Shown here piece after piece: positions 6,371 to 38,517 of a stretch of 41,836 nt of DNA (positions within the stretch are counted from its first letter, which is position 1; every line of letters starts with the position of its first letter). The stretch spans positions 1 through 41,836 of IMG/VR virus record IMGVR_UViG_3300024249_000004; one strand, written 5' to 3'. The notes below the pieces were generated by a model that made no database searches, was not told the origin of the DNA, and saw only the letters and a program-made list of their open reading frames with translations. The stretch comes from a virus. Taxonomy: Duplodnaviria > Caudoviricetes. Both the position numbers and the translations under genes were made by a program.

Positions 6371-6389
6371 TGAAAAAGGAGTACGTGTC

Positions 6390-11700: not shown

Positions 11701-11714
11701 AAGGGATCACTACT

Positions 11715-14354: not shown

Positions 14355-14434
14355 CATAGCTGCGCAAATCACGGCTTGCTCCCAATGCCGTGCGTAACGG
14401 TGCGTTCGTTAGTAGTGTCTGTAGTGTTCAGCGT

Positions 14435-14479
14435 ACGCCCCGGCCGTGGGTCCCCCCTCCGGCCGGGGCGTTTCGCTAT
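14435..14479 (+). terminator. Strong hairpin, probable terminator of the late/lysis operon
   Basis: ACGCCCCGGCCG-13 nt-CGGCCGGGGCGT followed by TTCGCTATT (weak U tract). Confidence 0.55.
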
Positions 14480-14731
14480 TCGAGCCGCGAGCAAAACAGC
14501 ATCAATCCGACGACGGCCGCACCCTGGGCGGCGGCAGCGGCGCCGCCGGCATAACCGCAAGCCGCGATAGCGCCCGCGCCTAGGACGAGAAGCACCGAAA
14601 ACCGCAGCATGGATACGCTTCCGTGCTAAGCTGCAGAACGCACCGACGCGCCCGAGAAAGGGGTCCATCTCGGGCGCGCCTATGGCCGGCGGCATAGCGT
14701 GGGCAGCACGCGCCGCCGGTCAATTACGTTA

Positions 14732-15361
14732 CTAAACTCGCGAACGGCGACGCCGTTGCAGAGCCCAAACCCCTATACAAGCCGATAAAATACCGGACAA
14801 GCCGGCGCCCAGGGCAGGGGCTGGAACCGCCGCAGCCGCAACGTCGACCCGGTAATGCTCGAAGTCGGTAATGGTGCCGCCGACGTCGACCAGCGCGAAC
14901 CTGTTGATGGTTTCGCCGTTGATGGCGCTCAGAGTGAAGCCGCTCTGCGCATTAAGGTCGAGCAGCCCGAGATCGAAGGTGAACAGCTTGGTCGTGCCGT
15001 TCGGCTCGTTCGCGGTCACGAACGCCGTCACGTCGCCGGTCCCCTTCAAACTGAAGACATCGGTCAGGGTCGGGATCACCACGCCCGCGAGGCTGAACAC
15101 CTGAATTTGCAGGTTGTTAGTACCGGTAATCTTGATGTCGTTGCCATTGGCCGCCGCCGTGAACAGCGGATTGCCGGACAGGTCGGTGAAATCGACAACA
15201 CCGGTATGCTGGCCATTGAACGAGCCGAGGGCGAGCGAGCCGATCAGGCTGTTAAAGATCACATTATCGCCGGTGCCGGAAAGATGCGTGTCGAGGACGA
15301 TATCGGCATAGGCCGGAGCCGAGAACAGAAGTAACGCAGATGCTAACAGTAACTTATGCAT
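14732..15361 (-). CDS. Secreted protein with PEP-CTERM/VPxP-CTERM-like sorting signal
   Basis: Sec signal peptide MHKLLLASALLLFSAPAYA. C-terminal VPAPALGAGL, TM helix and RRRRSRV basic tail. Confidence 0.85.
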   Translation of the reverse strand: MHKLLLASALLLFSAPAYADIVLDTHLSGTGDNVIFNSLIGSLALGSFNGQHTGVVDFTDLSGNPLFTAAANGNDIKITGTNNLQIQVFSLAGVVIPTLTDVFSLKGTGDVTAFVTANEPNGTTKLFTFDLGLLDLNAQSGFTLSAINGETINRFALVDVGGTITDFEHYRVDVAAAAVPAPALGAGLSGILSACIGVWALQRRRRSRV

Positions 15362-15391
15362 AGCTTGTCGCCTTTCTGGGTTGTGCAGCGC

Positions 15392-15715: not shown

Positions 15716-15924
15716 CAGCGCGTGAGTAGAAAGCTCAAGAGCAACTGCACCCGCGTCTCGATCATCGACAAATCCGACATATGCCGCAGCAGCACGCCCC
15801 GGTGAAGCGGATCGAGCGCCATTTCATTGAGCCGGCGGAAGATTTCATTGGATACGCGCAGGCTCTTAGCGATGGCCTCGGCGTCGGTTATTTCGTCCAG
15901 CGGCGCCGCCGCAACGTCGTCCAT
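15715..15924 (-). CDS. Hypothetical protein
   Basis: Strong RBS (GGAGGAG), 69 aa, helical composition. Confidence 0.7.
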   Translation of the reverse strand: MDDVAAAPLDEITDAEAIAKSLRVSNEIFRRLNEMALDPLHRGVLLRHMSDLSMIETRVQLLLSFLLTR

Positions 15925-19881: not shown

Positions 19882-19911
19882 CTGGACCGCCCCCTCTTTT
19901 TCTATTCGGTC

Positions 19912-20739
19912 TTACCGCGTCACCGGCCGGCGGCGCTGGCCGGTGTGCAGCGGCACGGCGGCGGCCGCCGCAACCGCCGCCTTGGCGGCAATTTCCTGCA
20001 TCGCCTTCGCGGCAATCTCCTCCACCGGCTTAGCCGCGGCCGGCGCAGCCGGCTGCGCGATCTCGGCCCGGCGGCGCCGCACGACAGCGGCAACCTCGGC
20101 AGCCGGCGTAGCCGGCTGCGCGGCCGGCGGCGCGGCGATCTCGGGGGCGCCCTCCAGTCGGCCGTGCATGTCGGCCCAGGCCACAACAACCAGTATCGGC
20201 TCGACCACCTGTCCCCACTTGGAGTGGGGGTAACTGTCACTGCGCAACTCAAGTACCGGGCAGGGGTGGTGCGGATCGCGCGCAAGCTGCTTATAAATCT
20301 CGTCCATCAGCTTCAGAGAAGCTTTGATGCCGCCGTAGCTCGATGCCTTGTACATCACTTCGGTGCCGGCATCCTCGCCGTCGAGGCACTTCAACTCCAT
20401 GTTCCTTTGCTCTTTAAATTCGGTGCCGTCGATCGGCGCCGGCTTGGGCGGGCGCGGCACGTTCACCGGCGTCATGACCTCGCCGGCGAGTTTATTCTTG
20501 GAGCCGTCGTCAACCCAACAGGTCCAGCCGTGCTCGAGCGACATCACGTTGACAATCCAGCGCGAGCCCTCCTGCACCTCGATGTTTTCCTGGCCGAACA
20601 CCCATTCCTTTGACTTCATCAGCCGCAGCAGCGGCTTGCCGCTGTAGCCGGTGGTCGAGCCGGCGCGCGAGTCGGCAATGCCGTTCATCAGCGACTTGAC
20701 GAAATCGCTCGGCAGTACGTCTGGTAAGTTGGTGGTCAT
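19912..20739 (-). CDS. Putative ssDNA-binding / replication accessory protein
   Basis: Located between the DUF2800-like nuclease and the polymerase, as SSB-like genes are in such modules. Beta-rich core with an Ala/Pro tail. Function from synteny only. Confidence 0.6.
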   Translation of the reverse strand: MTTNLPDVLPSDFVKSLMNGIADSRAGSTTGYSGKPLLRLMKSKEWVFGQENIEVQEGSRWIVNVMSLEHGWTCWVDDGSKNKLAGEVMTPVNVPRPPKPAPIDGTEFKEQRNMELKCLDGEDAGTEVMYKASSYGGIKASLKLMDEIYKQLARDPHHPCPVLELRSDSYPHSKWGQVVEPILVVVAWADMHGRLEGAPEIAAPPAAQPATPAAEVAAVVRRRRAEIAQPAAPAAAKPVEEIAAKAMQEIAAKAAVAAAAAVPLHTGQRRRPVTR

Positions 20740-22034
20740 TTCAGTGTCTCCGGTTTGTTAGTTGTGATCAGCCTGTTCAGCGCCGCGCTGAACTGCTCGG
20801 CCGACACCTGCGGCGTAACCGCCGGCGCCGGATCGTCCTCGCGCGCGACCGTCGTCTCGGTCGACGGCGGCACCACGCGCAATTCGTCTGGAATTTTCGT
20901 GCCGAGCTTGCGAGCGATCGCCTCGGCGCTGGCGAAGGTAAGCAGTTTCTTCTGCCAGATTTCATCAATTTTGTAGCCGAGATTATACAGCGTCTTGGCC
21001 ACGACACTGTCGTCGATCCACTGCCGTTGCTTTACTTTCGGCTTAAGCCGCCAGCCGGGAACGACGCCGCCGGCCGTGAGATAGGCGTGTAGCTGCGCGT
21101 CGATCTCCGCTTTGTATAGATACGCCTGATCCGCGAGCGTCTTGGCAGCCGATAGGAACACACCATAATCAGTGGGCTCATCGGCCGGCGCCAGAACATC
21201 GCGCTGCTCGGGAATACGCGGGCCGAGCGCCGTAAAATCGAGCAGCGGCCCGGTCCACAGCGGGCAGCTAACCTTGCAGGGCGCGAAGCGGCAGTGCTCG
21301 CCGCGCGAGCGCGGCGCATCCGGCCGCAGCGCCAGCTTAACCGCGGCTTCCACGTCCTCCTGGAATTGCTTCAGCTCGTCACGGTCGACCGTGACATCTG
21401 TCAGCGGCTCGGCGCCGGCCGGCTGGACGATCGCCAGCACCAGCTCGCGGCTCTTGGCGTAGTATTTCGGGAAAGTAGAAAACGCCGCCGCGGCGTAGAA
21501 CAGCAATTGCGAATTGACCAGTTCACCGGCTTCGTCCTTCGTTACCGCCCGCACGCCGATGCCGGCACCGAATTTCCAGTCGACGTGCAAAACCTTATTT
21601 GAATTTTGTAAGATCACATCGACGGTGCCGTAGCCGCCAGCGACACCAGGGAATGTTACTTTCTGCTCGACGCCAACGACACGATAATCTTCGACCGGGA
21701 ACGGGGCGCTATGCCTTTGCTCCAGCCGCTCCAGCGCGGTCAGCGCCGGAATAATCCGGGTGTCGCAATCATCTTGGGATAATTCACGGTCATGGAAACG
21801 CTTGCCAACCAGCGCGTGGGCAAACCGCCGCAAGTCGCCGTGGGTCATATGCGGCTTGGCCTTGGCGCGCCGCATGATCAGCGCCATTACTTCATGCAGG
21901 GCAGTGCCCTGCTCGGCATATTCGGAGGTGATTTCGGCGGCGGGCGGCAGCGCCGCGATGGCTTTATGCGAGCCGGGGCAATTAAGCAGGCGGCCAGCCG
22001 TTGAGCCGCCGATCAATGTGCTGTGGACAGACAC
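20736..22034 (-). CDS. DUF2800 / Cas4-like PD-(D/E)XK exonuclease
   Basis: HS..GGSTAGRLLNCPGS, AEQGTALHE, GTVDV...VDWKFGAG, QLLFYA, GEHCRFAPCKVSCP. GTG start with RBS. Confidence 0.85.
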   Translation of the reverse strand: MSVHSTLIGGSTAGRLLNCPGSHKAIAALPPAAEITSEYAEQGTALHEVMALIMRRAKAKPHMTHGDLRRFAHALVGKRFHDRELSQDDCDTRIIPALTALERLEQRHSAPFPVEDYRVVGVEQKVTFPGVAGGYGTVDVILQNSNKVLHVDWKFGAGIGVRAVTKDEAGELVNSQLLFYAAAAFSTFPKYYAKSRELVLAIVQPAGAEPLTDVTVDRDELKQFQEDVEAAVKLALRPDAPRSRGEHCRFAPCKVSCPLWTGPLLDFTALGPRIPEQRDVLAPADEPTDYGVFLSAAKTLADQAYLYKAEIDAQLHAYLTAGGVVPGWRLKPKVKQRQWIDDSVVAKTLYNLGYKIDEIWQKKLLTFASAEAIARKLGTKIPDELRVVPPSTETTVAREDDPAPAVTPQVSAEQFSAALNRLITTNKPETLK

Positions 22035-26057: not shown

Positions 26058-26414
26058 ATGGCAGGTAATGGAAACGGCAGCGGCGAGCTACCCGACGCGC
26101 GGCGGGCCGCGGTGATGCACGGCCTGGAGCAGTATCACGCCATGGCGGCCGATCGTGACGCGCTGGTCGACGAGATTGGCAAGCTCAAGGTCGAGCTTGC
26201 GGCGATGCGGGTCGTGGCCGACGCCCACGACAGCCTACAGACCCAGGCGGACAGCCGCGTCGCGTCGGCCTATGCCGAGCGCGACCAAGCGGTGCGGGAG
26301 CGGGCCCGCTACGAGGCCCTGCACATGGCGATCCTGGCGATGTGCCGGGAGTTCCGGGTGCCCGAGCCGGCGGCTACGCCGCAGGCTTCGGCCGAAGGCG
26401 GGGCCGCACCTTGA
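26058..26414 (+). CDS. Hypothetical coiled-coil protein
   Basis: RBS GGGAGG, heptad-like helix. Confidence 0.7.
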   Translation: MAGNGNGSGELPDARRAAVMHGLEQYHAMAADRDALVDEIGKLKVELAAMRVVADAHDSLQTQADSRVASAYAERDQAVRERARYEALHMAILAMCREFRVPEPAATPQASAEGGAAP

Positions 26415-26724
26415 CGCGCCAGAGCAGTTCCTCGGCGCCGCAGCCGGCTGCGCCGGCTGCGCCGCAGGCCTCGCACATCCCGCGCCGCATATCCGGCTCG
26501 CAGCCGTCCTGCTCGTTACCACAGGCGACGCAGAAGCCCGGGTTGTCGAGCGTGCACATTTGTCGCGTAACGGCGTCGATGATGCGCTCGGCGGTGACGC
26601 TGTGATGCCGGCGCTTCGTGGTCTGCTTCGGCTTCGGGTTCGGGCATTGCCGGCTGGCGACCTGTGACGGGCACGGCTGGGGCACGATCTGGCAGCACCA
26701 GCGGCAGGCTTGGCCTTTTTCCAT
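26374..26724 (-). CDS. Cys-rich (Zn-ribbon-like) hypothetical protein
   Basis: RBS GGAGG; DNPGFCVACG...CEPD...CEACG. Confidence 0.65.
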   Translation of the reverse strand: MEKGQACRWCCQIVPQPCPSQVASRQCPNPKPKQTTKRRHHSVTAERIIDAVTRQMCTLDNPGFCVACGNEQDGCEPDMRRGMCEACGAAGAAGCGAEELLWRVKVRPRLRPKPAA

Positions 26725-26726
26725 GG

Positions 26727-26951
26727 TTATGCCTCCCCGTTCCATTGGTGGTCGGCATCCCATTGGTGTTCGCATGCGAGGCAGATGAAGGAATTATCGT
26801 TGCCGCTGTCTATTTCCTCCTTCTCCCCGCACTCCGGGCAGAGCCTGCCGATCGAGAAGCGTGAGAGCTTGTCGAGGCGGTCGAGTTCTTCCTGGTCATT
26901 GTCGATGAGTGCTCGTAGCGCGAGGGCGTCCCAGTTTGGGCGGTAGGTCAT
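26727..26951 (-). CDS. Zn-ribbon hypothetical protein
   Basis: CPECG...CLACEHQW, RBS GGAG, ATGA coupling. Confidence 0.75.
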   Translation of the reverse strand: MTYRPNWDALALRALIDNDQEELDRLDKLSRFSIGRLCPECGEKEEIDSGNDNSFICLACEHQWDADHQWNGEA

Positions 26952-27175
26952 GTGTTTTCTCCCTGAATTTTCCGGGCACCATGGCCCTTGATGTAACGAT
27001 GCGTCGGAGGATCTTGCGTCGGCACCACGCGGGTGTTCGACACGGCGGTCCAGCGCATCGCCAGATTATTCACGTAGGATTCGGCTTCCTCGGCGGTGGC
27101 GAAGCGCAGGCCGTTGCCGCAGAACTTGCCGCTGCGGTCGGCGATTACTTCGGCGGCGAATGATGTAGGGGTCAT
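26948..27175 (-). CDS. Hypothetical protein, paralogue copy 2
   Basis: MTPTSFAAEVIADRSGKFCGNGLRFATAEEAESY..., RBS AGGAG. Confidence 0.8.
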   Translation of the reverse strand: MTPTSFAAEVIADRSGKFCGNGLRFATAEEAESYVNNLAMRWTAVSNTRVVPTQDPPTHRYIKGHGARKIQGENT

Positions 27176-27258
27176 TTTCGGTTGCTCCTGTCTTTGAGGT
27201 GGCCCCGGGGTCGCAGCCGGCGGCGCCGGCGCCGGCATCTGCCAGTTCGGGCGGTAGG

Positions 27259-27492
27259 TCACGTGTTTTCTCCTTGAATTTCCTGAGCGCCATGTCCCTT
27301 GATGTAACGATGCGTCGGGGGGTCCTGCGTCGGCGCCACGCGGGTAGCCGACACGATGGTCCAATGTCTCGCCAGATTATTCAGGTAGGCTTCGGCTTCC
27401 CCGGCAGTGCCGAAGCGCATGCCGTTGCCGCAGAACTTGAACTTGCCGCTGCGGTCGGCGATTACTTCGGCGGCGAATGATGTAGGGGTCAT
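27259..27492 (-). CDS. Hypothetical protein, paralogue copy 1
   Basis: MTPTSFAAEVIADRSGKFKFCGNGMRFGTAGEAEAY..., RBS AGGAG. Confidence 0.8.
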   Translation of the reverse strand: MTPTSFAAEVIADRSGKFKFCGNGMRFGTAGEAEAYLNNLARHWTIVSATRVAPTQDPPTHRYIKGHGAQEIQGENT

Positions 27493-27660: not shown

Positions 27661-27717
27661 GCGCAATGGAGCGTAATGGAGCGTAATGGAGCGTAATGGA
27701 GCGTAATGGAGCGTAAT
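27661..27717 (+). repeat. 10-bp tandem repeat (GCGTAATGGA), about 5.7 copies
   Basis: Read directly; the first unit is the variant GCGCAATGGA. Confidence 0.97.
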
Positions 27718-27721
27718 TCAG

Positions 27722-27943
27722 ATGCAGCAGTTGGTGATCGACCCCGAAATGGCGCCGCGCGAGTTCGCGGACGCCCTCGAAACGGCCGGCATGACCCAGG
27801 TAGAGATGGCAGATTTTCTCGGCGTCGCCGATCGCACGGTGCGGCGCTACTTGACCGGCGACGCGGTGATCCCGGCCTCGACCGCGATCCTGCTGCGGGT
27901 GATGCGGCAATGCGATTTGCGTATTTGCGTGTCGGCGGCGTAG
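27722..27943 (+). CDS. XRE-like HTH regulator
   Basis: LETAGMTQVEMADFLGVADRTVRRYLTGDAVIP. Confidence 0.85.
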   Translation: MQQLVIDPEMAPREFADALETAGMTQVEMADFLGVADRTVRRYLTGDAVIPASTAILLRVMRQCDLRICVSAA

Positions 27944-27983
27944 GTTAGGGGCTTCATTCACGGCGGGCAGCGCCGAGGGTCAA

Positions 27984-28298
27984 GTGACTAAGACACCAGT
28001 TGATATCCGTTCTTTGGCCCGCACGCATTGCGCGGCCGGCATCCGCGCGCTCGCCGGCTTCGCGCACGGCGGTGACGTGCCGATCAAGCATCGCATCGTC
28101 GCGATCGGCATGCTGCTCGATCGCGGCTACGGCCGGCCGGCGCAGCCAATGACCGGAGAGGGCGGCGAGGGCGATATCAAAGTGATAATCCGCAACATCA
28201 TCGAGTCGGTCGATCGGAGGACGGTGACGATCGATCACGACAGCGGCAACGGCGTCGATAAGTTGTCGATTAGTAACGAACCTCGAAGTAATAAATGA
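27984..28298 (+). CDS. Putative terminase small subunit
   Basis: Upstream of terL; IRSLAR...LLDRGYGRPAQ motif; GTG start with GAGGG. Confidence 0.6.
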   Translation: MTKTPVDIRSLARTHCAAGIRALAGFAHGGDVPIKHRIVAIGMLLDRGYGRPAQPMTGEGGEGDIKVIIRNIIESVDRRTVTIDHDSGNGVDKLSISNEPRSNK

Positions 28299-28465
28299 TC
28301 ATCGTCTGCCCGTATTGTGGTCGCGGCGATGTTGATGCGCGTGATATCTACGCTGCTTGGTATAAGCGCATGACGGACAAGCTGGAGCGCGGCGGCGAGG
28401 AGCACACCGAGGCGCTCGCGGAGATGCTGCGAGTACTGGGCGGCGTGCCGTGGCAACTGAAGTAA
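28295..28465 (+). CDS. 56-aa hypothetical protein with CPYCG; not in the ORF track
   Basis: ATGA overlap with terS; MIIVCPYCGRGDVDARDIYAAWYKRM...; fills the terS-terL gap. Confidence 0.55.
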   Translation: MIIVCPYCGRGDVDARDIYAAWYKRMTDKLERGGEEHTEALAEMLRVLGGVPWQLK

Positions 28466-29814
28466 TAGTGCCAGCGAACGGCTGGGTGCCGCGCCCGCAT
28501 CAGATGAAGCTCTGGCGTTATCTATACGAGGGCGGCAAGCGCGCGGTTGCGGTGTGGCATCGCCGCGCCGGCAAAGATGAGATTTGTTTGCACCATCTGT
28601 GCGTCGCCGCGATGCGGCGCGTCGGCAATTACGCTTACGCCTTGCCCGAGTACGCCCACGGGCGCAAGACCATCTGGACCGCCGTCAATCCGCACACCGG
28701 CCGCCGCCGCATTGACGAGGCATTCCCGGTGCCGTTGCGCGCGCAGGTCAATGATCAGGAGATGTTCATCCGGCTGTGCAACGGCAGCACCATTCAGATC
28801 ATCGGCTCGGATCGTTATGATAGTTCGTTAGTTGGCGGCTCGGTGGCGGGATTGGTGTTTTCCGAATACGCGCTCGCCAACCCGAGCGCGTGGGCCTATG
28901 CGCGGCCGATCCTCGAGGAAAACAATGGCTGGGTGGTGTTTGTTACGACGCCGCGCGGTCGCAATCACGCCTACAACATCTTCAAGCACGCCGAGCACGC
29001 CTCCGGGTGGTTCTGCGAGCTGCTGACTGCGCGCGACACCGACGCCATGAGCGAGGCGGAGCTGGACGCCGCGCTGAAGGAATACCGCGACCTCTACGGC
29101 GAGGCCGGCGAGGCAATGTGGCGGCAGGAATTTATGTGCGACTTCACCGCGGCGCTGCTCGGCGCGATCTTCTCGCGCGAGTGCGCCGAGCTGCGCAAGG
29201 AAGGTCGCGTGCTGGCGATCGACGCGGTGCCGGGCCTGCCGGTGCACCGCGCCTGGGACTTGGGGATGCGTGATGACACTGCCGTTATCTTCTTTCAGAC
29301 CGCCGGCTCGCAGCTTTACATCCTGGACTGCCTCTCGACCTCGGGCGCCTCGCTGGATTGGTGGCGCGATGAGATCGTGCGGGTGCACGGCGAGCGCGGC
29401 TGGCGGCACGGGACGGACTGGGTGCCGCACGACGCCAGGGTGCGCGAGCTTTCGACCGGCCGCACTCGGGTCGAGACGATGGGGGCGCTCGGCCTGCACC
29501 CGCAACTGGCGCCCGACGCCACTCGGCAGGACGGCATCAACGCGGTGCGCCGCACGCTCGGGCTCTGCGTGTTTCACCCGCGCTGCGAGGACAAGCTGCT
29601 GCCGGCGCTGGAGCAGTACCGCCGCGAGTGGGACGATGAGAAGAAATGCTTCACCGTCAATCCGCTGCATGACTGGACGAGTGATCGGGTAGACGCATTT
29701 AGGTATATGTCCCTAGCCTGGAAGCCGGCCACGGCGCGCGTCATCCCTATGCCCCGGCGCGAGGGCTGGTACATTCCGGAGCCGGCGCCGCCGCGCTCGG
29801 GCATGCGGCTGTGA
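28450..29814 (+). CDS. terL: Terminase large subunit
   Basis: PRPHQ, WHRRAGKD (Walker A), VFSEY (Walker B), TTPRGRNH, RAWDLG..D (RNase H-like), PHDA, DAFRY. Confidence 0.95.
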   Translation: MATEVIVPANGWVPRPHQMKLWRYLYEGGKRAVAVWHRRAGKDEICLHHLCVAAMRRVGNYAYALPEYAHGRKTIWTAVNPHTGRRRIDEAFPVPLRAQVNDQEMFIRLCNGSTIQIIGSDRYDSSLVGGSVAGLVFSEYALANPSAWAYARPILEENNGWVVFVTTPRGRNHAYNIFKHAEHASGWFCELLTARDTDAMSEAELDAALKEYRDLYGEAGEAMWRQEFMCDFTAALLGAIFSRECAELRKEGRVLAIDAVPGLPVHRAWDLGMRDDTAVIFFQTAGSQLYILDCLSTSGASLDWWRDEIVRVHGERGWRHGTDWVPHDARVRELSTGRTRVETMGALGLHPQLAPDATRQDGINAVRRTLGLCVFHPRCEDKLLPALEQYRREWDDEKKCFTVNPLHDWTSDRVDAFRYMSLAWKPATARVIPMPRREGWYIPEPAPPRSGMRL

Positions 29815-29959
29815 GCCGGGCGCGCATCGCTGGATCGCGCCACCATCCCGGCAGCCAGACGCACAGCGCGCAGTACGGATGGATCGGCGATGGCACGCAG
29901 CAGATGACGCGCACGCCGCATTCGCAGCAGTCGAACTCGGTTTTGCTGGGGTTGCTCAT
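29747..29959 (-). CDS. Possible Cys-rich small protein antisense in the terL-portal gap
   Basis: EFDCCECG...YCALCVWLPGWWRDP; weak RBS. Confidence 0.4.
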   Translation of the reverse strand: MSNPSKTEFDCCECGVRVICCVPSPIHPYCALCVWLPGWWRDPAMRARLTAACPSAAAPAPECTSPRAGA

Positions 29960-30225
29960 GACGATGACTTCTCACGATCGAGCTAGGATGCGCGCCGTTA
30001 TCGAGCGTTTGTATGGCCACGAGCGCGTGGATGAGGCGTGCCGGATGCTGTTGGAAGTGGCCTGGACGCTGGACTTTACCAACCGGCTGGCCGCCAAGAT
30101 TGCCCGCGACAGAAAAAAGGCCCCGGGCGGCGCCCGGAGCAAGGTGTCCGCACGCCGAGGTGGCGCGCGGGTGCGCCGCGTGCAACTATAGGATTGATTT
30201 TGTTTCGCAAAGGGGGGTGTGACGC

Positions 30226-32568
30226 ATGGCCGGGCAGCGGTCATCCGACTACCCGTCGTATTCGGCCGATCGCGATCCGCGCCCCTACGCGGCGCCCGGC
30301 CCGAGCGACGCGGACGTTTCGCACGACGCGCTGGATTATAACCCGGCGGTCGAGCCGCGCCGCTCCGGCGCGTGGCTTAATTTGCTCGAAGAAAGCGAAA
30401 AGGCGTTCGAGGACTGGAACCATCACTGTGACCTGATTGACGCGCGCTACGCCTCGCTGTCGCGGCTCTGCGCCGAGACGCGCACGCGTGAGTTTCAGTT
30501 GTTCTGGGCGAATTGCGAGGTGCTCAAGCCGGCGATCTACGCGACCGCGCCGGTGCCGGTTGTCGTTACCAAATTTAAGGATAGAAGGCCGGTTTACCAA
30601 GCCGCCAGCGAACTGCTCGAGCGCTGCTGCACGGTGGCCTTTGACGTCGGCCGCATCCAGGACGCCATGCTGCTCGTTCGCGACGACCTCGCGATGGCGG
30701 CGCGCGGCACCATCTGGGTGCGCTACGAGGGCGCCAAGGGCTCATCGCATTACGGCCACGAGCGGGTTTGCTACGATTTCAAAAATCGCCGTGACTTTCT
30801 CCACTCCGTCTCGCGCACTTGGCCGGAGGTGTGGTGGGTCGCCGCCGCCAGCTACCTGACCCGCGACGAGGCCCGCGTGCGCTTCAAGGCGTCGTCGGGT
30901 GATTGTTACCAGGACGCCGAGTATAAGGTCGACAAGGACACGCAGTCGATCGGCGGCGCCGATAATCGCGAGCGCGCCAAGTTCTGGGAAATCTGGAACA
31001 AGAACGAACGACGTGTGGTGTGGGTGGCGCAGGGCTGCGAGGACATCCTCGACGAGGACGATCCGCACCTCGAACTGCAGAACTTCTTCCCGTGTCCGCG
31101 GCCGGCCTACGGCGCCGTGCAGCGCGGCAGCCTCGTGCCTGTCCCTGACGTGCTGCAGTACAAGGACCAGCTCGACGAGATCGACATGCTTACCAGCAAG
31201 ATACACGCGCTGAGTGACGTGATCGAATGCAAGGGTTTCTATCCGGCCGGCGGCGAGATCGGCGACGCCATCAACCGCGCCGTCAGCGTCAAGACGCCGT
31301 CGACGGTGATGGTGCCAATTTCGAATTGGAGCGCCTTTGGCGGCAGCAAGGACGTGGTGATCTGGCTGCCGATCGACATGATCGCGCAAGTGGTGACGAC
31401 CTTGGTGGACCTGCGCAAACAGGTCATTGAGGATGTTTATCAGATCATGGGTCTAAGTGATATTATGCGCGGCGCCACTGACCCGAAAGAAACGCTCGGC
31501 GCCCAGCAGCTTAAGACTCAGTTCGGTTCGACGCGAGTTGAAGATAAGCAAAACGAACTCAAGCGCATTGCCCGCGATCTGGTAGCGATCACCGCCGACA
31601 TCATTACCGAGAAATTTGATCCAGTTACCATTATCGAGATGTCGCAGACGCAGTTGCCGACGCAGAAGATGCAGCAGGATCAGATCAGGCAAATCCAGCA
31701 GCAGATGGCGGCGCAGCAGAAGGCGATCGGGATGCTGTCGCAACTGCCGCAGGCGCAGCAGGCCTTGCAGCAGGATCCGGATAAAGCCGCGCAGATGCAG
31801 CAGCAACAGCAGCAGATGACTCAGTCCGGCAATAATGCTATCGCGCAGCTTAACGAAACCGCGACCTTGGAGCAGGTGCTGGAGTTTCTCAGCAGCTGCC
31901 GGGCACGCGCCTTCACGCTCGACATCGAAACCGACAGCACGATCATTGTTGACGAGAACGCCGAGAAGCAGCGCCATACCGAGTTCGTCTCGATGCTCGG
32001 GCAGTTGCTGCCGCAGCTGGCGCAGATGGTGATGACGACGCCGCAGGCCTCGGGGTTCGCTGCCTCGGTGCTGAAGTTCTCCTGCTCGGCGTTTCGCGGC
32101 GGCCGCGAGCTCGACGGCGCGATCGACGAGTTTGCCGAGCTGATGAAGCAAAAGGCCGACCAGCCGCAGGGTGATGATCCGGCGACGGCGGCGACCAAGA
32201 CGCAGTTGCAGATTGAGCAGATGAAGAACCAGCGGCAGGCGCAGAAGGATCAGGCCGACACGCAACTGAAGGCGCAGGAATTGCAGATGCGCGATCAGCA
32301 CGAGAAGATGAAAATTCAGAGTAACGAGCAACTCAAGCTGCTGGAGTTGCGCGGCCGCAACGCCGCCGACGAAGCCAAGGCGCAGCAGACCAATCAAAAG
32401 GCGATGGCCGAAGGCCAAGCCCACCGCGCCGACCTTCTTTCGACGATCGCTAAGGCGCGTGCTGACGAGCAGACCAATGCGCTGAAGCAGCGCGAGCTTG
32501 CCGCCCGCACGCAGGCGCACATGATCAAGATGGCGCAGCCGCCGGCGCCGCAGCGAGGGCCGTTCTGA
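30226..32568 (+). CDS. Portal protein
   Basis: 780 aa after terL; IMGLSDIMRG..ETLGAQQLK motif; Gln-rich insertion and long C-terminal coiled coil (P22-like barrel). Confidence 0.88.
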   Translation: MAGQRSSDYPSYSADRDPRPYAAPGPSDADVSHDALDYNPAVEPRRSGAWLNLLEESEKAFEDWNHHCDLIDARYASLSRLCAETRTREFQLFWANCEVLKPAIYATAPVPVVVTKFKDRRPVYQAASELLERCCTVAFDVGRIQDAMLLVRDDLAMAARGTIWVRYEGAKGSSHYGHERVCYDFKNRRDFLHSVSRTWPEVWWVAAASYLTRDEARVRFKASSGDCYQDAEYKVDKDTQSIGGADNRERAKFWEIWNKNERRVVWVAQGCEDILDEDDPHLELQNFFPCPRPAYGAVQRGSLVPVPDVLQYKDQLDEIDMLTSKIHALSDVIECKGFYPAGGEIGDAINRAVSVKTPSTVMVPISNWSAFGGSKDVVIWLPIDMIAQVVTTLVDLRKQVIEDVYQIMGLSDIMRGATDPKETLGAQQLKTQFGSTRVEDKQNELKRIARDLVAITADIITEKFDPVTIIEMSQTQLPTQKMQQDQIRQIQQQMAAQQKAIGMLSQLPQAQQALQQDPDKAAQMQQQQQQMTQSGNNAIAQLNETATLEQVLEFLSSCRARAFTLDIETDSTIIVDENAEKQRHTEFVSMLGQLLPQLAQMVMTTPQASGFAASVLKFSCSAFRGGRELDGAIDEFAELMKQKADQPQGDDPATAATKTQLQIEQMKNQRQAQKDQADTQLKAQELQMRDQHEKMKIQSNEQLKLLELRGRNAADEAKAQQTNQKAMAEGQAHRADLLSTIAKARADEQTNALKQRELAARTQAHMIKMAQPPAPQRGPF

Positions 32569-32747
32569 TGGCGACGCCGGTTGTGACCATCGCTTCCGGC
32601 GGTCTCCCCGTCGTCGAAACGCCGCTCGGCAAGCCCGTTTCCGAGGCGGCGAACGGGCGCGGCACGCCGGTCACCAAGGTGGTTGGCAAGCCCGGCCTGC
32701 CGGTGGTTTACGTCGTCGCCGCGGGTCCGCTTAAAGGGTCAGGCTGA
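32568..32747 (+). CDS. 59-aa putative virion protein with GxPV repeats; not in the ORF track
   Basis: MATPVVTIASGGLPVVETPLGKPVSEAANGRGTPVTKVVGKPGLPVVYV..., TGATG coupling on both sides. Confidence 0.75.
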   Translation: MATPVVTIASGGLPVVETPLGKPVSEAANGRGTPVTKVVGKPGLPVVYVVAAGPLKGSG

Positions 32748-33175
32748 TGCCAACCGCCCCTCTTACAAAGTTCAACGCCTTAATTGACGAGCTATCGCGT
32801 GGCGGCCACAACCTGCAAACCGCGGTGCTCAAGGCGGCCCTGACCCCTACGGCGCCGAGCGTTGCGGACACGGTCTGGAGCGCGGTCACCTATCCGCCGC
32901 CGGCCGCCGCCAACGGCTACACCGCCGGCGGCAATACGCTTACCACGACCAGCGCCACGACCTCGGGCGGCGTGTTTACTCTGGTGCTGGCCGACAGCGT
33001 CTTTACCGCGACGGCGGGCGGCATCGGGCCGTTTCGCTACGTCGTCGTCTACAATTCCAGCGCCGCTAACAAGCTGGTCGGGTTCGTCGACTACGGCAGC
33101 GGCGTGACGCTGCCCACCGCGGGCGATTTCACCGTCGATTTCGATCCGGTCACGGGGGCGCTTACCATTGCATGA
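32747..33175 (+). CDS. Putative virion structural (head fibre/decoration-associated) protein
   Basis: GYTAGGNTL, IGPFRYVVVYN, VDYGSGVTL; Thr/Ala-rich beta protein. Confidence 0.7.
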   Translation: MPTAPLTKFNALIDELSRGGHNLQTAVLKAALTPTAPSVADTVWSAVTYPPPAAANGYTAGGNTLTTTSATTSGGVFTLVLADSVFTATAGGIGPFRYVVVYNSSAANKLVGFVDYGSGVTLPTAGDFTVDFDPVTGALTIA

Positions 33176-33597
33176 CCACATGGGTGCCAGAGCGATGGGA
33201 CGTTGGTCAGTGGGACCAAGCCCACTGGGACGGCCAGCTTGGGCTGAACGTCACGCCGGCTGCCGTATCAATTACCGGCCAGAATGTCGCGCTGCGAGCG
33301 ACGGCGCGGCTTACGATCGCGCCGTCGGCCGCGGTCGCCGTCACCGGTCGATCTGTCCTCCTGGCGACTGCCGCGCGGCTTACGATCGCGCCGCCGGCCG
33401 CGGTCGCGGTCACCGGCCAGGATGTCGGGCTGCTGACGGCGTCGGCGCCGGCCGGCCTGACGCTGGCCGTGACGCCGCTCGGGGTCGTGCTGACGCCTGG
33501 GGAAATCGGCCTTTTCGTTTCGCATCCGGTGCCGCCGTTCGTGCCGCCTCCTGGCGTGCTGACGTTCGGGCAGCGGGTGTTTCTGCGGCGTTGGTAG
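33172..33597 (+). CDS. Putative virion protein with WDxxxWD motifs and internal 23-aa repeat
   Basis: WVPERWDVGQWDQAHWD; ARLTIAPxAAVAVTG x2 (69-bp offset); ATGA overlap. Confidence 0.7.
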   Translation: MTTWVPERWDVGQWDQAHWDGQLGLNVTPAAVSITGQNVALRATARLTIAPSAAVAVTGRSVLLATAARLTIAPPAAVAVTGQDVGLLTASAPAGLTLAVTPLGVVLTPGEIGLFVSHPVPPFVPPPGVLTFGQRVFLRRW

Positions 33598-33603
33598 GTT
33601 CCC

Positions 33604-34647
33604 ATGGCCGAGCCTGACCCGGAAGCCCTCGGCGAGCTCGCGGCGGTCGATAACCTGCCGCCGGACTTGCTGGTGCCGCCGCGGGCGCGCATTACGATCG
33701 GCGGGCCCCGCCCGGACGACGCCACAACCGACTATCGACCGGATGCGTTCGAGGCCGCCGCCGAGGTCGCCCGGCGGCGCTATCCGAACGTGCCGCTTGC
33801 GGTCATGCCTGAGGGCGCCACCGAGGGGCCGCTGCAGGCGGCTACGGCGTTCGGACGCGGCCTCGCCGCGGCGCCAGGGAACGTCGGCCGCGTCGCCGAG
33901 ACGGCGATGGGCAGGCTTGCCGACCCGGGTTTCTACGCGACGCAGCCGCCGCCGGCGGTCACGTCAGGCGGCATGCAGGCGCCGCCCTACGTGGCGCCCG
34001 GCCAGGGTTCGCTGGCAGCCCGTATTGGCGGCACGATCATCGGGGCGCCGCTCAAGGCGACGATCGACCGTGTGATGCTGCCGGGCAAGGCGATCTCCGG
34101 CGAGTTCAATCCCTTCGAGCAGGACAGCGAGTCCGCGGACTGGGCGGCCGAGACCGCCATGGGCATGATTGCCCGCGGCGTGGCGGGCGGCGCCCCGGCC
34201 GGCGCGCTCGGCGCGACCGGCGGCCGGATGGTGCAGCCGACCTTCGAGGCGCCCGGCGTCATGGGTGAGATAGCGGCGCCGGCGCCGCGTGCGCCGCGCG
34301 CCCTGACGCCGCGCAACATCAACAAGTTCACGCGCGGCGAGGCGCAGCGTGTTGCCTTCCCCGGCGTCTACCAACGCCCCGACGTGATCGCAGCGCAGGC
34401 CGCCGCGAATGTCGCGCCCGAGCATCCGGCCATGAAGGCGCTGTTTGGTGTCACCCGCGATGACCTTTACAACATCGGCCAGCAGGGGCGCCGGCCGGGC
34501 AACATGGCGCCGTCGATCGCGGCAGTAGCCGACCCCAAGGGTTCATACGCCGCCGAGGCAATCATGAATCCGCGCAACGCGCGGCGCATGGTCGATACGC
34601 TGAGTGAAGCCGGCAAATATCCGGCGCTGACCAAAAGGCATGGATAG
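33604..34647 (+). CDS. N-terminal part of a probably frameshifted late-module gene
   Basis: 347-aa ORF ending ...ACC AAA AGG CAT GGA TAG; the +1 frame continues as 34640-35446. Confidence 0.7.
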   Translation: MAEPDPEALGELAAVDNLPPDLLVPPRARITIGGPRPDDATTDYRPDAFEAAAEVARRRYPNVPLAVMPEGATEGPLQAATAFGRGLAAAPGNVGRVAETAMGRLADPGFYATQPPPAVTSGGMQAPPYVAPGQGSLAARIGGTIIGAPLKATIDRVMLPGKAISGEFNPFEQDSESADWAAETAMGMIARGVAGGAPAGALGATGGRMVQPTFEAPGVMGEIAAPAPRAPRALTPRNINKFTRGEAQRVAFPGVYQRPDVIAAQAAANVAPEHPAMKALFGVTRDDLYNIGQQGRRPGNMAPSIAAVADPKGSYAAEAIMNPRNARRMVDTLSEAGKYPALTKRHG

Positions 34648-35446
34648 TTGGTATGTGATGGACCCGGCGTATCAGCGCATGGTTCAGCTACTCGGCCCCG
34701 AGCAGGCCAAGCTCGAGTACCAGCGGTTCAATACGATCGTGCCGATGTTTTCGCCGGGCTCGGACGTACTGACGGAAATCAACCGCGGCACTGCTGCAAA
34801 TATGTTTGCAAAACAAGGCCGCTTTGCTGATTTTATGCGTTATGGCGGGGTTGCTGAAAACAAACGCGGCGCCGATTTCCCGGCTGACCTCCTTGATGTC
34901 AGTGGTCATCCGTATCACTCTACGGCGCAGGCAGGGCCGGCGTCTCGTTATCTGGAGCGTGGCGTCGTGGATATGACGCAGCCCAAGGTGCCACTTTACA
35001 TGCAGGCGTCGGGCGTGCCGGAAACCGGCTTCCAGACCACGCTGCCGGTACCAGACGCCCATTTCACGCGCGCATCGGGCATGTCTGACGTGCGGAAAAA
35101 TGCCAACCCGGGGGCCTCCATGAAGACGCCGGAGTATGCGGCTTATGGCCCTTGGTATCGTGAGAACGTGGCGAAGCCGCTCGGTATCGAGGCGGTGCCG
35201 GCGCAAGCCCGCATGTGGGGTACGTACGCCCCGCAGACTGGTGTCGATACGCCGGTCGGCGCGCCCAAGCTGGAGTTGCTGGCGCAATCGATTTGGGAGC
35301 GCGCCCAGAAGCTCGGCATCGACCCGCGCGTGTTGCGCGATCAGGTTCTAAGCGGCAACGCGCACGCCGTGCAGTTGCTTGGCACCGGCACCGCGGCCGG
35401 TCTGGCGATGGGTAGTATGGCGCGGCAGAACGAGTATCAGCAATAG
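34640..35446 (+). CDS. C-terminal part of the same gene; enzyme-like helical domain (WY..SP..N..K..DxH..QAxxW)
   Basis: No properly spaced RBS. Removing one A gives LTKGMDSWY. Confidence 0.7.
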   Translation: MDSWYVMDPAYQRMVQLLGPEQAKLEYQRFNTIVPMFSPGSDVLTEINRGTAANMFAKQGRFADFMRYGGVAENKRGADFPADLLDVSGHPYHSTAQAGPASRYLERGVVDMTQPKVPLYMQASGVPETGFQTTLPVPDAHFTRASGMSDVRKNANPGASMKTPEYAAYGPWYRENVAKPLGIEAVPAQARMWGTYAPQTGVDTPVGAPKLELLAQSIWERAQKLGIDPRVLRDQVLSGNAHAVQLLGTGTAAGLAMGSMARQNEYQQ

Positions 35447-35451
35447 AGGAG

Positions 35452-36141
35452 CTACCGTTGGCGTTTGCGGCGGTTCTTTGGGTAGGGGCGTCGATTGTTG
35501 GCTTGTTCTTTGCGGGTGACCCATCGGCAATTGTGCGGTTCGTAATTGCCGTTGTTGTCGATGCGATCGAGCGTAAGGCCGGGTGGCCGTTCCCCCATAT
35601 CAGCGAGGAAGTTGCGAAAATCCAGCCATCGTTCGCAAACCGTAATGCCGCGGCCCCCGTAATAGGAGTAGTGCCTATGATTTGGGTTATTGCACCGTTG
35701 GATCATGGCTTCCCAGGACTGGTAGGTGTCGGTCGATCCTGTATCGCGGGCATGGCCATGTTTGATTTGGCTGCGCGCGGTTTCAGAATGAAGGCAGCCG
35801 CATGATCTAGTGTGGTTTGTTCTTAACGCCGCACTGCGGGTTATTATTTCTGTTCCGCAGTCGCAGCGGCAGCGCCAGAGTACGGTTTGCTCGGTGGAGC
35901 GACCGGCTTCTTGGAGCACGGTCAGGCGATGGAAGCGTTGTCCGGTAAGATCAATCTTGGATGATAAGCATCCGCACGATTGAACGGCGCCGCTTCTTAA
36001 GCGGACGCCGTCTACTATTTTGTTGCTCCCGCAATCGCAACGGCAATGCCATGTTGTCCGACCGTTTGGTGTCCGCCCGGCTTCTGCAAGTATGGTTAGG
36101 CGGCCGAAGCGTTGTCCGGTAATATCGATTTTTAGTGTCAT
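35452..36141 (-). mobile_element. Free-standing HNH homing endonuclease gene, antisense to the late operon
   Basis: Two D[IL]TGQRF..LT..W.CRCDCG...SCGC repeats, [30 protein letters not shown]. Lower GC than its flanks. Confidence 0.92.
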
Positions 36142-36164
36142 AACTGAAGGGGTATGCTTATATC

Positions 36165-36776
36165 ATGGCACAGTCAATTCTCACAACCACGCCCAGCAAT
36201 CCCTCTCCGCCCACTAATTTTTCCTGTCTGGGCACGACGCCGCCGACCTCGCCCTCGCAGGCCGCGGTCGACGACGGCACGGCGGCCTCCGGCCTCGTGT
36301 TCGCGGCCAAGCTCGCCTCGGCCGATAACACCAACTTCCCGAGTCTCGACGCCGAGGGCAAGGGCACCGAGGTTGCCGTTACCCAAACCTACAGCGCCAG
36401 CGTCTACAATCCGGCGGGGCCGCTGGTCACGGTGAGCACCGGCCCGGTCCAGACCGCGGCGACGATCGCGGCCGGCCCGAACGCCACGCACGCCTCGAGC
36501 CTGTCGCCGGTAACCAATGCGACGCTGACGTCGATCACGCCGACCACGGCGGCGTCGGGCGCCAGCGGCACCGTCGCGCTCACGGCGGTGACCGGAACCG
36601 GCTTCAACAAGCAGAGCGTGGTTTACGCTAACGGCGTGGCGGCGCCGACCGTGTTTGTTAGTTCAACCACGCTTACCGCGACCATTCCGAAAAAGACGTC
36701 GGCGGGGACGTGGAATATCACTGTCGTCACTGGCGGTGTGGTCACGACCGCACCGCAGGTCTTTACGTTTACGTAG
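36165..36776 (+). CDS. Ig-like (IPT/TIG) domain virion decoration protein
   Basis: TLTSITPT...VTGTGF...TVFVSSTTLTATIP...AGTWNITV...FTFT. Confidence 0.8.
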   Translation: MAQSILTTTPSNPSPPTNFSCLGTTPPTSPSQAAVDDGTAASGLVFAAKLASADNTNFPSLDAEGKGTEVAVTQTYSASVYNPAGPLVTVSTGPVQTAATIAAGPNATHASSLSPVTNATLTSITPTTAASGASGTVALTAVTGTGFNKQSVVYANGVAAPTVFVSSTTLTATIPKKTSAGTWNITVVTGGVVTTAPQVFTFT

Positions 36777-36846
36777 GAGGGCAATAAAACGCGCCGTGAA
36801 GTTTTTTTGCGGCAGCTTCGTACGCTGCCGCCGCTTCCTCGGCGCT
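36769..36846 (-). pseudogene. Remnant C-terminus of an AP2-domain (HNH-AP2) endonuclease
   Basis: Translates SAEEAAAAYEAAAKKLHGAFY, the typical AP2 terminal helix. The upstream AP2 strands and HNH motif are absent. Confidence 0.65.
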
Positions 36847-36867
36847 TAGCAAAGGATTGGCGCCGCA

Positions 36868-37113
36868 ATGCGGTTCGAGCTTACCGGCGAGCCGGTTCGG
36901 CAGCGCGAAACGTCCTGCAAGACTTGCGGGTCGCTGCGCTGGTGCGACGAATGCTGGGATCATGTGCGCGGCTACAGCCCGTTCGTGATCTGGCATTGCC
37001 TGCTGTGCCGTATGCCGACGTTCTTTTACGAGCATACCGCCGCAGACGTTATGGCGCCGAAACGCTGTGACTATTGCGGCTGGGACGAGGCGACTGAGTG
37101 CATACTGATATGA
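36868..37113 (+). CDS. Cys-rich (four CxxC) hypothetical protein
   Basis: CKTC, CDEC, CLLC, CDYC; no clear RBS. Confidence 0.55.
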   Translation: MRFELTGEPVRQRETSCKTCGSLRWCDECWDHVRGYSPFVIWHCLLCRMPTFFYEHTAADVMAPKRCDYCGWDEATECILI

Positions 37114-37126
37114 AGGAGCGCGGGCG

Positions 37127-37501
37127 ATGCCCACCAATCCGTTCAAGTCGCTGAACGAGCCCGAAGACGTTTCGCTGCCGCAGCGTAATGTTGAATCCAT
37201 TAATGAGCCGACGCCGACGCCGACGCCGCCGGATATCCGGCCGGAGCTGGACTTTCTGGAGCCGGGCAGCTGTATGATCGGCGATGCCGACTTCACGCTG
37301 TTCGTTCACGGCACAAACTTCTTCCCCGGCTCGATCATTCACTTCGCTGGCCATGACGAGCCGTCTACGTTCAACGTCGACGGCACGCTCTCGACCGGCG
37401 TCAAGCCGTCGCTGTGGGCGTCGCCGGTGGTCGTGGAGGTCATGGTGCGCAACGGCTCGCTGGTCTCGGCGCCGCTGCCGTTCGAGTTTCTCGCGGCTTA
37501 A
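37127..37501 (+). CDS. Ig-like (IPT/TIG-like) protein
   Basis: RBS AAGGAG; LEPGS...TLFVHGTNF.PGSII.F...V.VRNG..SAPLPFEF. Confidence 0.75.
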   Translation: MPTNPFKSLNEPEDVSLPQRNVESINEPTPTPTPPDIRPELDFLEPGSCMIGDADFTLFVHGTNFFPGSIIHFAGHDEPSTFNVDGTLSTGVKPSLWASPVVVEVMVRNGSLVSAPLPFEFLAA

Positions 37502-37575
37502 CGCGCGTGCGTGGAACACTGCCGATGCGGTACTGGTTACCTCGCGGGCAGCGCGAAGGTAAAGGAGCCGAGGAT

Positions 37576-38112
37576 ATGTCGACCAAGCACACCGAGCATG
37601 ACCATGACGATAAGCAGCGCCGGCCGCAGCCGTCTTCTGCCGCCGACGCCGCGCGGAAATTCCACGAGCAGCAGGACGCCCAACACAAGGCCGAGCGCGA
37701 ACGTAACGAAAAGGCGCAGGGCGCCGCCAATACCCGGATCGACCGCGGCGAAATCGATGCTATGGTACGGGCCGGCTACGAGAATATCGAGCAGCCCGGC
37801 CTTGACCCTCATAACATGCCGGGCAACGTGCTGGACGTGAAGGCGGGCGAGCGGCCCGCGCATAAGTCGACGCTGGACCTAGAGGACATTACCGGCAATC
37901 CCGGGCACCGCGGCGTGACGCCTTATGCGCCGGCTACTTCGATCAACCGCGCGGTCGGCATGGACGGCGCCGTATCGATCAATGAGCCGCCGGATGTCGA
38001 GCAGCCGCAGCCGCGGGGCTCGGTCGGGGCGGAGGCAGAAGCGCAGCGGCAGCATCAGCATGCGGCGGACGAGGCACGCGAGCGGAACAAGGCGCATGCG
38101 CAGCAAAGGTAA
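37576..38112 (+). CDS. Hydrophilic hypothetical protein
   Basis: RBS AAGGAG/GAGG before ATG 37576 (MSTKHTEHD); SINEPP motif. Confidence 0.75.
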   Translation: MSTKHTEHDHDDKQRRPQPSSAADAARKFHEQQDAQHKAERERNEKAQGAANTRIDRGEIDAMVRAGYENIEQPGLDPHNMPGNVLDVKAGERPAHKSTLDLEDITGNPGHRGVTPYAPATSINRAVGMDGAVSINEPPDVEQPQPRGSVGAEAEAQRQHQHAADEARERNKAHAQQR

Positions 38113-38178
38113 GGATTAAACACTAACCGATCGCCGGGCGGGCAGCGTCCGGCGATCGGCAGGCGGCAAGGGGTCGAC

Positions 38179-38517
38179 ATGGACTTGGTGGAAGTCGCGC
38201 CAAATCGCTGGCGCATGGCGAAACCGTATAGTGTGACGCCGCCGGCGCGCTCGGCGCTGCCGTGCCCGCATGTCATTTCCGACGCGATGCCGGCGACCGA
38301 GCAGGTCGACGGGCATTTCTACGAGAGCAAAAGCGCGTTCCGCGCGGTCGGCCGCGCCCTCGGATTGACCGAGGTCGGCACCGAGAAACCCAGACTGAAA
38401 ACCAGCCGCGTCTCTGCTTCCGCAGAGACCAAGCGCGCGCGCCGTGACGCCATCGTGAAGGTCGTCGCGCAGCACCGCGCCGGGCGCCGGCCCATCATGC
38501 AAGAGGCACCGCAATGA
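38179..38517 (+). CDS. Head-module hypothetical protein
   Basis: PHVISDAM...VDGHFYESKSAFRA...EVGTE; ATGA overlap with the scaffold gene. Confidence 0.8.
   Translation: MDLVEVAPNRWRMAKPYSVTPPARSALPCPHVISDAMPATEQVDGHFYESKSAFRAVGRALGLTEVGTEKPRLKTSRVSASAETKRARRDAIVKVVAQHRAGRRPIMQEAPQ

Follow-up and report, generated by a model that had tools for sequence, protein, structure and literature searches.

Candidate antisense double hairpin and a family of GGCAG-loop hairpins at late gene starts of an uncultured phage

Introduction

The c4 RNA of P1 and P7 has loop sequences which are thought to pair around a ribosome-binding site and to block translation, and sar of P22, OOP and aQ of lambda and PAK_P4as15 are antisense RNAs delaying or lowering one phage gene each (PMC12197685 for both). 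In this work we describe a family of hairpins with a common G-GGCAG-C loop at the starts of five late genes, together with a double hairpin (H3/H2) of complementary loops, in a complete virus record of 41,836 bases and 64.6% GC (IMG/VR record IMGVR_UViG_3300024249_000004), which as a whole is called the window below.

The antisense RNAs sar, OOP, aQ and as15 overlap their target gene. ColE1 RNA I/RNA II and R1 CopA/CopT recognise each other by a loop-loop contact followed by strand invasion; these are single cis-encoded pairs with loops of 6-7 nt, often with a U-turn. The loop of boxB has a GNRA-like fold ending in A. The boxB hairpin is recognised by lambda and P22 N via its pentaloop (PMC9074901), the operator of T4 gp43 is a hairpin which has a conserved loop and is located at a translation start, RegA is one factor for many starts (PMC3014915), and the PeSL cassettes of T4-type phages are repeats of promoter and terminator at early genes (PMC2839356). 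No published description of the GGCAG element was found in searches of the open literature.

Results

The late genes of the window are on the + strand and run from 27984 across the record end to 14354, and leftward genes on the - strand are found at 14476-15924, 17671-22034 and 26374-27492. A sequence-only reading had proposed five stem-loops with the G-GGCAG-C loop and a weaker sixth, and all of these are present (Table 1), with contiguous stems of 5 bp at 14701, 5 at 27965, 7 at 30232, 8 at 33568, 5 at 37546 and 14 at 38140. Its coordinates are right except for the hairpin ahead of gene 37576, which spans 37537-37562. Five stemmed copies are all placed at late gene starts, the location that had been claimed for the family; the copy at 14684-14721, taken for the end of the late operon, is in fact beyond the hairpin of the convergent junction (14435-14471) and between two - strand genes. 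No U tract follows any of the six, and all five late hairpins fold better on the + strand, two further observations which stand.

The word GGGCAGC is not over-represented in the window (18 copies against 13.7 +/- 3.5 expected, a count reached by 13 of 100 shuffles). Stems of at least 5 bp are found on 6 of 16 + strand copies, the background being 2.6% (nominal p 1.9e-6), which makes GGGCAGC the best of all loop words of 3-7 nt on both strands; since 1 of 60 local dinucleotide shuffles yielded some word as good, the genome-wide significance is modest. Five hundred synonymous-codon shuffles gave at most three stems (in two shuffles) and at most one near a start, so that the enrichment over codon-preserving shuffles which the sequence-only reading had called for is there, the stem count lying beyond all 500. 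Of 14 copies in + transcribed DNA, five are at -45 to +10 of a start (expected fraction 0.069, p 0.002), and these are exactly the + transcribed copies with stems. An unbiased scan of upstream k-mers returned CGGGCAGC as top motif in the window and CGGGCAGCG in G001, a genome of the same clade. The stems differ between sites on both arms; this variation is descriptive, because the rows were chosen for having stems. A sigma-70 promoter scan detected none beside any of the five late hairpins.

The comparison comprised 42 largely complete genomes including the window and G001, the other 40 being more distant. Close relatives, with portal and capsid 97-99% identical, retain the hairpins. GGGCAGC stems number six each in the window and G001 and zero to three in the other 40 genomes, where just one is near a start; at least five stems are present in only two of the 42. 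Since close relatives keep the hairpins and the 40 other genomes have few stems, the family is, judged by this distribution, young and clade-specific, and the conservation of loop plus stem expected earlier thus holds for close relatives and is nearly absent from the more distant ones. The same GGCAG system, or a covaried one, was found in none of the 40 relatives; a G-CUGCA-C loop in a comparable position in G002 lacks matching targets, and a CUGCC hairpin in G049 lacks structured ones. In 398 kb of one Bradyrhizobium metagenome-assembled genome (MAG), a single possible host relative, stems are present on 1 of 73 GGGCAGC copies, and on this material a host repeat or host-typical loop was rejected.

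Position, G.U pairs favouring the + strand, and conservation of loop and stem amid changing flanks support regulation at the RNA level, and we conclude that the GGGCAGC hairpins at late starts are a genuine, clade-specific RNA regulon. Of the translational regulon read by a loop-specific protein, as first proposed, the RNA-level regulon at late starts stands and the protein reader becomes the second choice.

The hairpins overlap initiation regions, and opening the region from Shine-Dalgarno (SD) sequence to start is predicted to cost 6.9-12.7 kcal/mol. Hairpin 1 is ahead of gene 27984, a putative terS named from position alone; in G001 its 15-nt core is an island between diverged flanks and the downstream gene is only 65% identical. 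A GGGAGGGGG-TA-CCCC-type palindrome covers the putative terS SD in G001, G003, G011, G014-G017, G021 and G023 and is missing from the window allele; it may be a packaging or regulatory site. Hairpin 2, at the portal gene, is identical across all close alleles. The weak hairpin 3 is G.U-rich and reaches only -4.0 kcal/mol, with its core retained in close alleles. Hairpin 4 has five natural alleles with differing stems and just two changes within the 7-mer. A CUGCC 5' of this hairpin could pair its loop in cis over 5 bp (window 37519-37552) as a possible two-state switch; in L204 this fold has 7 bp and is the predicted minimum. Hairpin 5 is within an intergenic run (38048-38214) identical in G001, and gene 38179 behind it overlaps the start of a 437-aa virion gene preceding the capsid gene.

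On the - strand the loops of the double hairpin read CUGCC, the complement of GGCAG, and GGACCCCUU, the complement of AGGGGU ribosome sites. H3 has no + strand gene behind it and sits between the gene 14732-15361(-) and a 44-aa - strand open reading frame (ORF). Because this ORF is located downstream, its position indicates that the - strand is probably transcribed across H3/H2; compared with G001 it has nine synonymous and one conservative change over 34 codons, as read by eye from the alignment. H2 folds better on the - strand (-29.3 vs -23.5 kcal/mol). The 80 nt at 14644-14723 are identical in the window, G001-type and G033 alleles and are the longest identical intergenic run against G001, excepting the record end with its wrapping gene, at an overall intergenic identity of 89%. 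The block was found only in the clade that has the GGGCAGC stems, and of 49 loci returned by a scan of viral sequences only three clade records aligned to it.

All ten target alleles examined have 8-14 predicted contiguous pairs with H3, mostly 8-10 and 14 in one allele; for gene 33604 the best 8-pair match falls off the loop. The loop of H2 is predicted to pair 7-11 bases with the SD regions of the portal gene, 38179, 36165, 32747, terS alleles and 15392-15694(-). AGGGGU is in the SD zone of 3 of 52 genes in the window and 5 of 52 in G001, against 20 of 2180 in the 40 relatives, with at most one in each. Pairing with H3 is retained via G.U after either of the two natural substitutions within the 7-mer, namely A to G in L006 and C to U in L204; this is weak support because transitions are common. 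When 51 starts were scanned for pairing, the four strong sites ranked 3-6 and the weak one 24, in a ranking that is partly circular.

A second arrangement of the same layout exists among relatives. Intergenic loops with a complement recurring at gene starts were sought in an unbiased scan, which yielded H3 in the window and, in relatives, a different word. UGUGAUG is present in the convergent gap of 8 of the 42 genomes, on the late strand every time, as a 6-nt loop 20-49 nt ahead of an H1-like terminator whose late tail is U-rich. The eight have 1, 1, 2, 4, 4, 4, 5 and 6 starts with CATCACA; the other 34 have none or one in 30 cases, two in one and three in three (p 4e-5, uncorrected for kinship). 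On a capsid tree made with a quick method for 39 of the 42 genomes, the eight are spread over several parts. The CATCACA word is immediately 5' of the SD in small genes that lie on both strands outside the structural block, and the GUGAUG hairpin is complementary over up to 12-13 nt to the CATCACAAC(G/A/T)GGAG leaders of presumed early genes. Target prediction in G015 puts the CATCACAACGGA genes in the first four ranks. In G017 the CATCAC word forms the loop on stems that vary (5-14 bp) and whose 3' arm contains the SD, the same anatomy as in the window. The GUGAUG hairpin matched no Rfam family at gathering score; a sub-threshold match to Hrs13 in G015 (E 0.0095, 19.6 vs 52 bits) was not used. 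This GUGAUG/CAUCAC arrangement is apparently an undescribed sister system.

In both systems a lone gap hairpin is located on that side of H1 where its transcript would be the complement of the target word, and this placement is the strongest argument for recognition of RNA by RNA. The parallel layout is an argument by analogy and would not amount to covariation of the GGCAG pair.

Table 1. Coordinates of hairpins and neighbouring features (in the window unless a genome or locus is named)
Feature	Coordinates	Strand	Remarks
Target hairpin 1	27961..27975	+	G-GGCAG-C loop; 8 nt ahead of putative terS GTG; abuts SD
Target hairpin 2	30226..30244	+	portal AUG within stem, loop in codons 3-4
Weak target hairpin 3	33561..33581	+	inside 3' end of 33172-33597, 22 nt before 33604
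Target hairpin 4	37537..37562	+	3' arm reaches SD of 37576
Target hairpin 5	38127..38159	+	14 bp; 19 nt before 38179
H3, candidate antisense hairpin	14684..14721	-	loop G-CUGCC-C; 10 nt past stop of 14732-15361(-)
H2, second hairpin of candidate RNA	14645..14680	-	loop UGGACCCCUU, complementary to AAGGGGUC-type SD regions
H1, GC hairpin	14435..14471		where the late and leftward operons converge; likely terminator
Late-strand 3' region before H1	14370..14434	+	UUGCUCC-loop hairpin, then U/G-rich stretch
44-aa hydrophobic ORF	14476..14610	-	downstream of H3/H2
209-aa gene	14732..15361	-	upstream of H3; signal-peptide-like N-terminus, hydrophobic basic C-terminal tail
GUGAUG-loop hairpin	G011 15411, G015 17701, G017 30824, G021 42241 (record coordinates)	late strand
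GUGAUG-loop hairpin	G023 32992, G028 37579, G030 about 6250, G044 (record coordinates)	late strand
GUGAUG-loop hairpin, example	L167:17630-17722	-

The genes of the window include terminase large subunit, portal, capsid, tail, endolysin, DNA polymerase, helicase and primase. They were called with a custom script and a few calls are wrong (two antisense calls over the helicase, and the portal start of G001). The terminase is about 55% identical to that of Rhizobium phage RHph_I3_18 and 52% to that of a Bradyrhizobium phage, and the capsid gene is matched at 83% on one contig of a Bradyrhizobium MAG; because of these similarities the host is likely to belong to the Rhizobiales.

The junction has further features of its own. 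The region 14370-14434 is the positional homolog of the GUGAUG hairpin of relatives. Read on the + strand, 14352-14471 contains TTGAC...CAAATCA, the UUGCUCC-loop hairpin, the U/G-rich stretch and H1 with a C-rich loop, and its start and H1 are common to the window, G001, G002 and G004. In both the window and G001 there is a pairing of 13-14 nt between the U/G stretch and the start of 15715-15924(-); this match is rich in G.U and may be due to chance. Homologs of H1 in relatives carry stronger U tails, and in relatives without the insert (L249, L556/L559) a similar gene directly adjoins H1. No Rfam family reached gathering score in the window; on 14300-14800 there were six weak matches up to E 5, none of them C4, and the sub-threshold PtaRNA1 (E 0.2) was not used.

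The 44-aa peptide is unannotated and under apparent purifying selection, with a structured leader, and may have a membrane or exclusion role. The tail of the 209-aa protein is CTERM-like by eye, and the protein has no Pfam or NCBIfam hit. Relatives of it are encoded at 87 viral loci, so the gene is mobile and widespread among phages, and neither Pfam nor NCBIfam has a name for it. That H3/H2 is a passenger untranslated region of this mobile gene was rejected: with near-duplicates excluded, 60 of 80 homolog loci were examined and three were flagged for an H3-type hairpin, namely two clade alleles and one unrelated long loop.

Some other loci deserve mention. G009 and G010 have a family of invariant G-CCGCAAA-C loops, with differing stems in 5 of 7 and 5 of 8 copies, respectively (G009 33275-37500, equal to L150:13260-17510, and G010 9323-13940) directly before the GAAAGG ribosome sites of small presumed early genes, and among the matches listed there is no convincing complementary loop. 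In G018 (10203-10421) a long junction hairpin has a loop complementary to AGGGGACTA at three gene starts. In the window, a small early gene and its leader are tandemly duplicated at 26948-27492(-), and a 10-nt repeat occurs five times at 27666-27716 ahead of a helix-turn-helix (HTH) gene. The gene ending at 7862 has an apparent start about 100 codons upstream of 6684, at 6372-6395, where the window has ATA and G001 has ATG behind a rearranged SD; this is either a non-canonical start or a damaged allele.

Discussion

Our preferred reading, to which we give about an even chance, is that H3/H2 is a trans-acting, multi-target antisense RNA, c4-like in action, which would likely repress late translation. 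It would accumulate early, as the 3' segment of the leftward and presumably early transcript or cut from it. The G-CUGCC-C loop of H3 would contact each GGCAG loop and then invade the 3' arm of the target to 8-10 pairs, up to 14; the shared closing pair and the adjacent C-G would follow from this invasion. At the putative terS, the portal gene and 38179 the loop of H2 would also cover the SD. The complex would block loading of the 30S subunit on the putative terS, portal, 33604, 37576 and 38179, and the levels of packaging and head-initiation proteins would be kept down until the RNA is outrun or neutralised by late transcription. The anti-SD loop and the portal loop in codons 3-4 suggest repression, not activation, and the effect at 38179 could spread by coupling because this gene overlaps the start of the next virion gene. 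A reason for a translational brake may lie in the HTH gene 27722-27943 running on into terS, with no U-tailed + strand terminator found between 27565 and 30358. Release might come, speculatively, from excess late mRNA or from + strand read-through across H2-H3.

A number of points weigh against this reading. Transcription of H3/H2, its pairing and its direction are all inferred from sequence. Complementarity of H3 and targets is automatic once the hairpin is read on the - strand, and the case therefore rests on the strand. Here the evidence is not clean: H3 folds better on the + strand (-30.6 vs -24.5 kcal/mol), a conserved extended -10-like TGCTAAGCT is seen by eye on the + strand immediately before H2, and the late U tail of H1 is weak in the window, where a scan for U-tract terminators did not call H1. 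No covariation of H3 and target loops was seen in the one clade with three H3 alleles, all identical. In G033 one SD base of 15392-15694, the best partner of H2, is changed and H2 is not. Mosaic genomes yield identical tracts anyway (47 of 2230 runs have at least 80 nt). Loops of five bases without a YUNR U-turn are short for kissing, and a search of passages of PMC6795135 gave nothing on kissing pentaloops. As to the parallel system, the nine top predicted targets in G017 miss its CATCAC genes, three genomes have three CATCACA starts without the gap word, and what looks like a second word in G041 lacks significance (p 0.35).

A phage or host RNA-binding protein recognising the G-GGCAG-C pentaloop, by which the five late genes would be repressed or timed and of which H3 would be an orphan or read-through site, is in our view unlikely. 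Such a protein would agree with the loop and closing pair being invariant on variable stems (in rows selected for stems), with the cost of opening the initiation regions, with the + strand fold of H3 and with a clade-restricted 56-aa CxxC protein (28295-28465, 98% in G001) which is otherwise unexplained. Six ORFs are limited to the window and G001 among 27 genomes and none is typed as RNA-binding. The ORF 29811-30191, with its basic tail the orphan most resembling an RNA-binding protein, was rejected as reader: it is largely deleted in G001, the tail being lost, and G001 keeps all six hairpins. Also contrary to a protein are H3 standing without a + strand gene, the lack of any RNA-binding family among 30 proteins in Pfam or 57 in PHROGs, the change of the loop in the L006 allele, and the motif not being enriched in the likely host relative; moreover the enrichment of AGGGGU in the clade and the parallel layout in relatives would be left unexplained.

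The strand question also bears on the possibility that H2-H3 is made from the + strand, by late read-through or from its own promoter, as a decoy which mimics late starts and titrates a protein or a small RNA, in a manner reportedly like that of CsrB or the prophage sponge AgvB. The two words of late starts, GGCAG and AAGGGGUC, do appear in the + strand loops, folding on this strand is equally strong (z -4.6 vs -3.95), the -10-like element precedes H2 and the tail of H1 is weak. We nonetheless consider a decoy quite improbable, as an unseen partner is required, the genes on either side are - strand genes, and in the eight parallel genomes the gap hairpin before the late terminator is the complement of the target word and not a copy of it.

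The hairpins might alternatively be structural punctuation, such as mRNA stabilisers, cleavage or pause sites, or points of module exchange, which share a loop with no trans-acting partner. Sites 1, 3 and 4 do border variable alleles or genes, and intergenic space gathers such elements anyway. To this possibility too we assign a small probability: the stems have no common sequence for recombination, two sites are within coding sequence, neither the sigma-70 promoter nor the U tract of PeSL cassettes is there, and the main text of the pentaloop survey PMC9074901 does not contain GGCAG.

Antitermination signals of the boxB type read by an arginine-rich phage peptide, also raised by the sequence-only reading, share pentaloops on variable stems with the family and are very improbable, the sites being at translation starts over 10 kb rather than behind a promoter, the loop having C third and G last in place of the GNRA-like pattern, the Pfam and PHROG protein scans giving no hit to such a peptide family, and the sole arginine-rich candidate (29811-30191, without its tail in G001) being dispensable. 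A DNA-hairpin promoter of the N4 type was rejected, as there is no RNA polymerase hit and most sites are oriented such that antisense RNA would result.

Known phage antisense RNAs are mostly directed to one gene each. If the antisense reading of H3/H2 is true, one phage RNA reaching several dispersed late genes would amount to a protein-free timing of packaging and head assembly, and the parallel early-gene system suggests that such regulons arise repeatedly; they could explain families of invariant-loop hairpins in other uncultured phages and might supply compact, orthogonal riboregulator parts for GC-rich Alphaproteobacteria. A wider scheme, tentative and on the whole somewhat unlikely, is that this podophage group times its lytic cycle by a reciprocal RNA switch at the junction of the convergent operons. 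The end-hairpin loop of the late transcript, GUGAUG in eight relatives, would silence ribosome-binding sites of early genes through their CAUCAC, the clade of the window would have added an early-strand double hairpin silencing late starts by loop-loop pairing, and private loop words would render the regulon of each lineage orthogonal.

Of the described systems, boxB is similar in having a pentaloop on a short stem and differs in its GNRA-like fold ending in A, which the GGCAG loop lacks. PeSLs are likewise dispersed stem-loops at module borders, and are distinguished by their sigma-70 promoter and U tract and by the unrelated stems of the GGCAG hairpins. The targets of gp43 and RegA resemble the GGCAG hairpins, with a conserved loop overlapping the initiation region and with many starts; their reader is a protein, and none was identified for the GGCAG hairpins. 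Compared with the ColE1 and R1 pairs, one H3 loop would serve many unrelated stems. According to PMC12197685, aQ and as15 act on late-stage functions, as is proposed for H3/H2. Unlike sar, OOP, aQ and as15, H3/H2 lies at a distance of 13-24 kb from the predicted targets, with no more than 8-14 nt in common with any of them.

There is also a likeness to c4 of P1 and P7, which is phage-encoded, trans-acting and structured, with the complements of its targets in loops, features that in the case of H3/H2 are predictions. The target sites are again around the ribosome-binding site, all five within -45 to +10 of the start. There is no match to the C4 covariance model of Rfam, and the predicted targets are portal, putative terS and late genes, with no antirepressor among the PHROG hits. 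As proposed here H3/H2 is c4-like in action and not a member of C4: c4 acts on one antirepressor message in immunity, whereas H3/H2 would address five dispersed late starts through their hairpin loops and adds a second, anti-SD loop.

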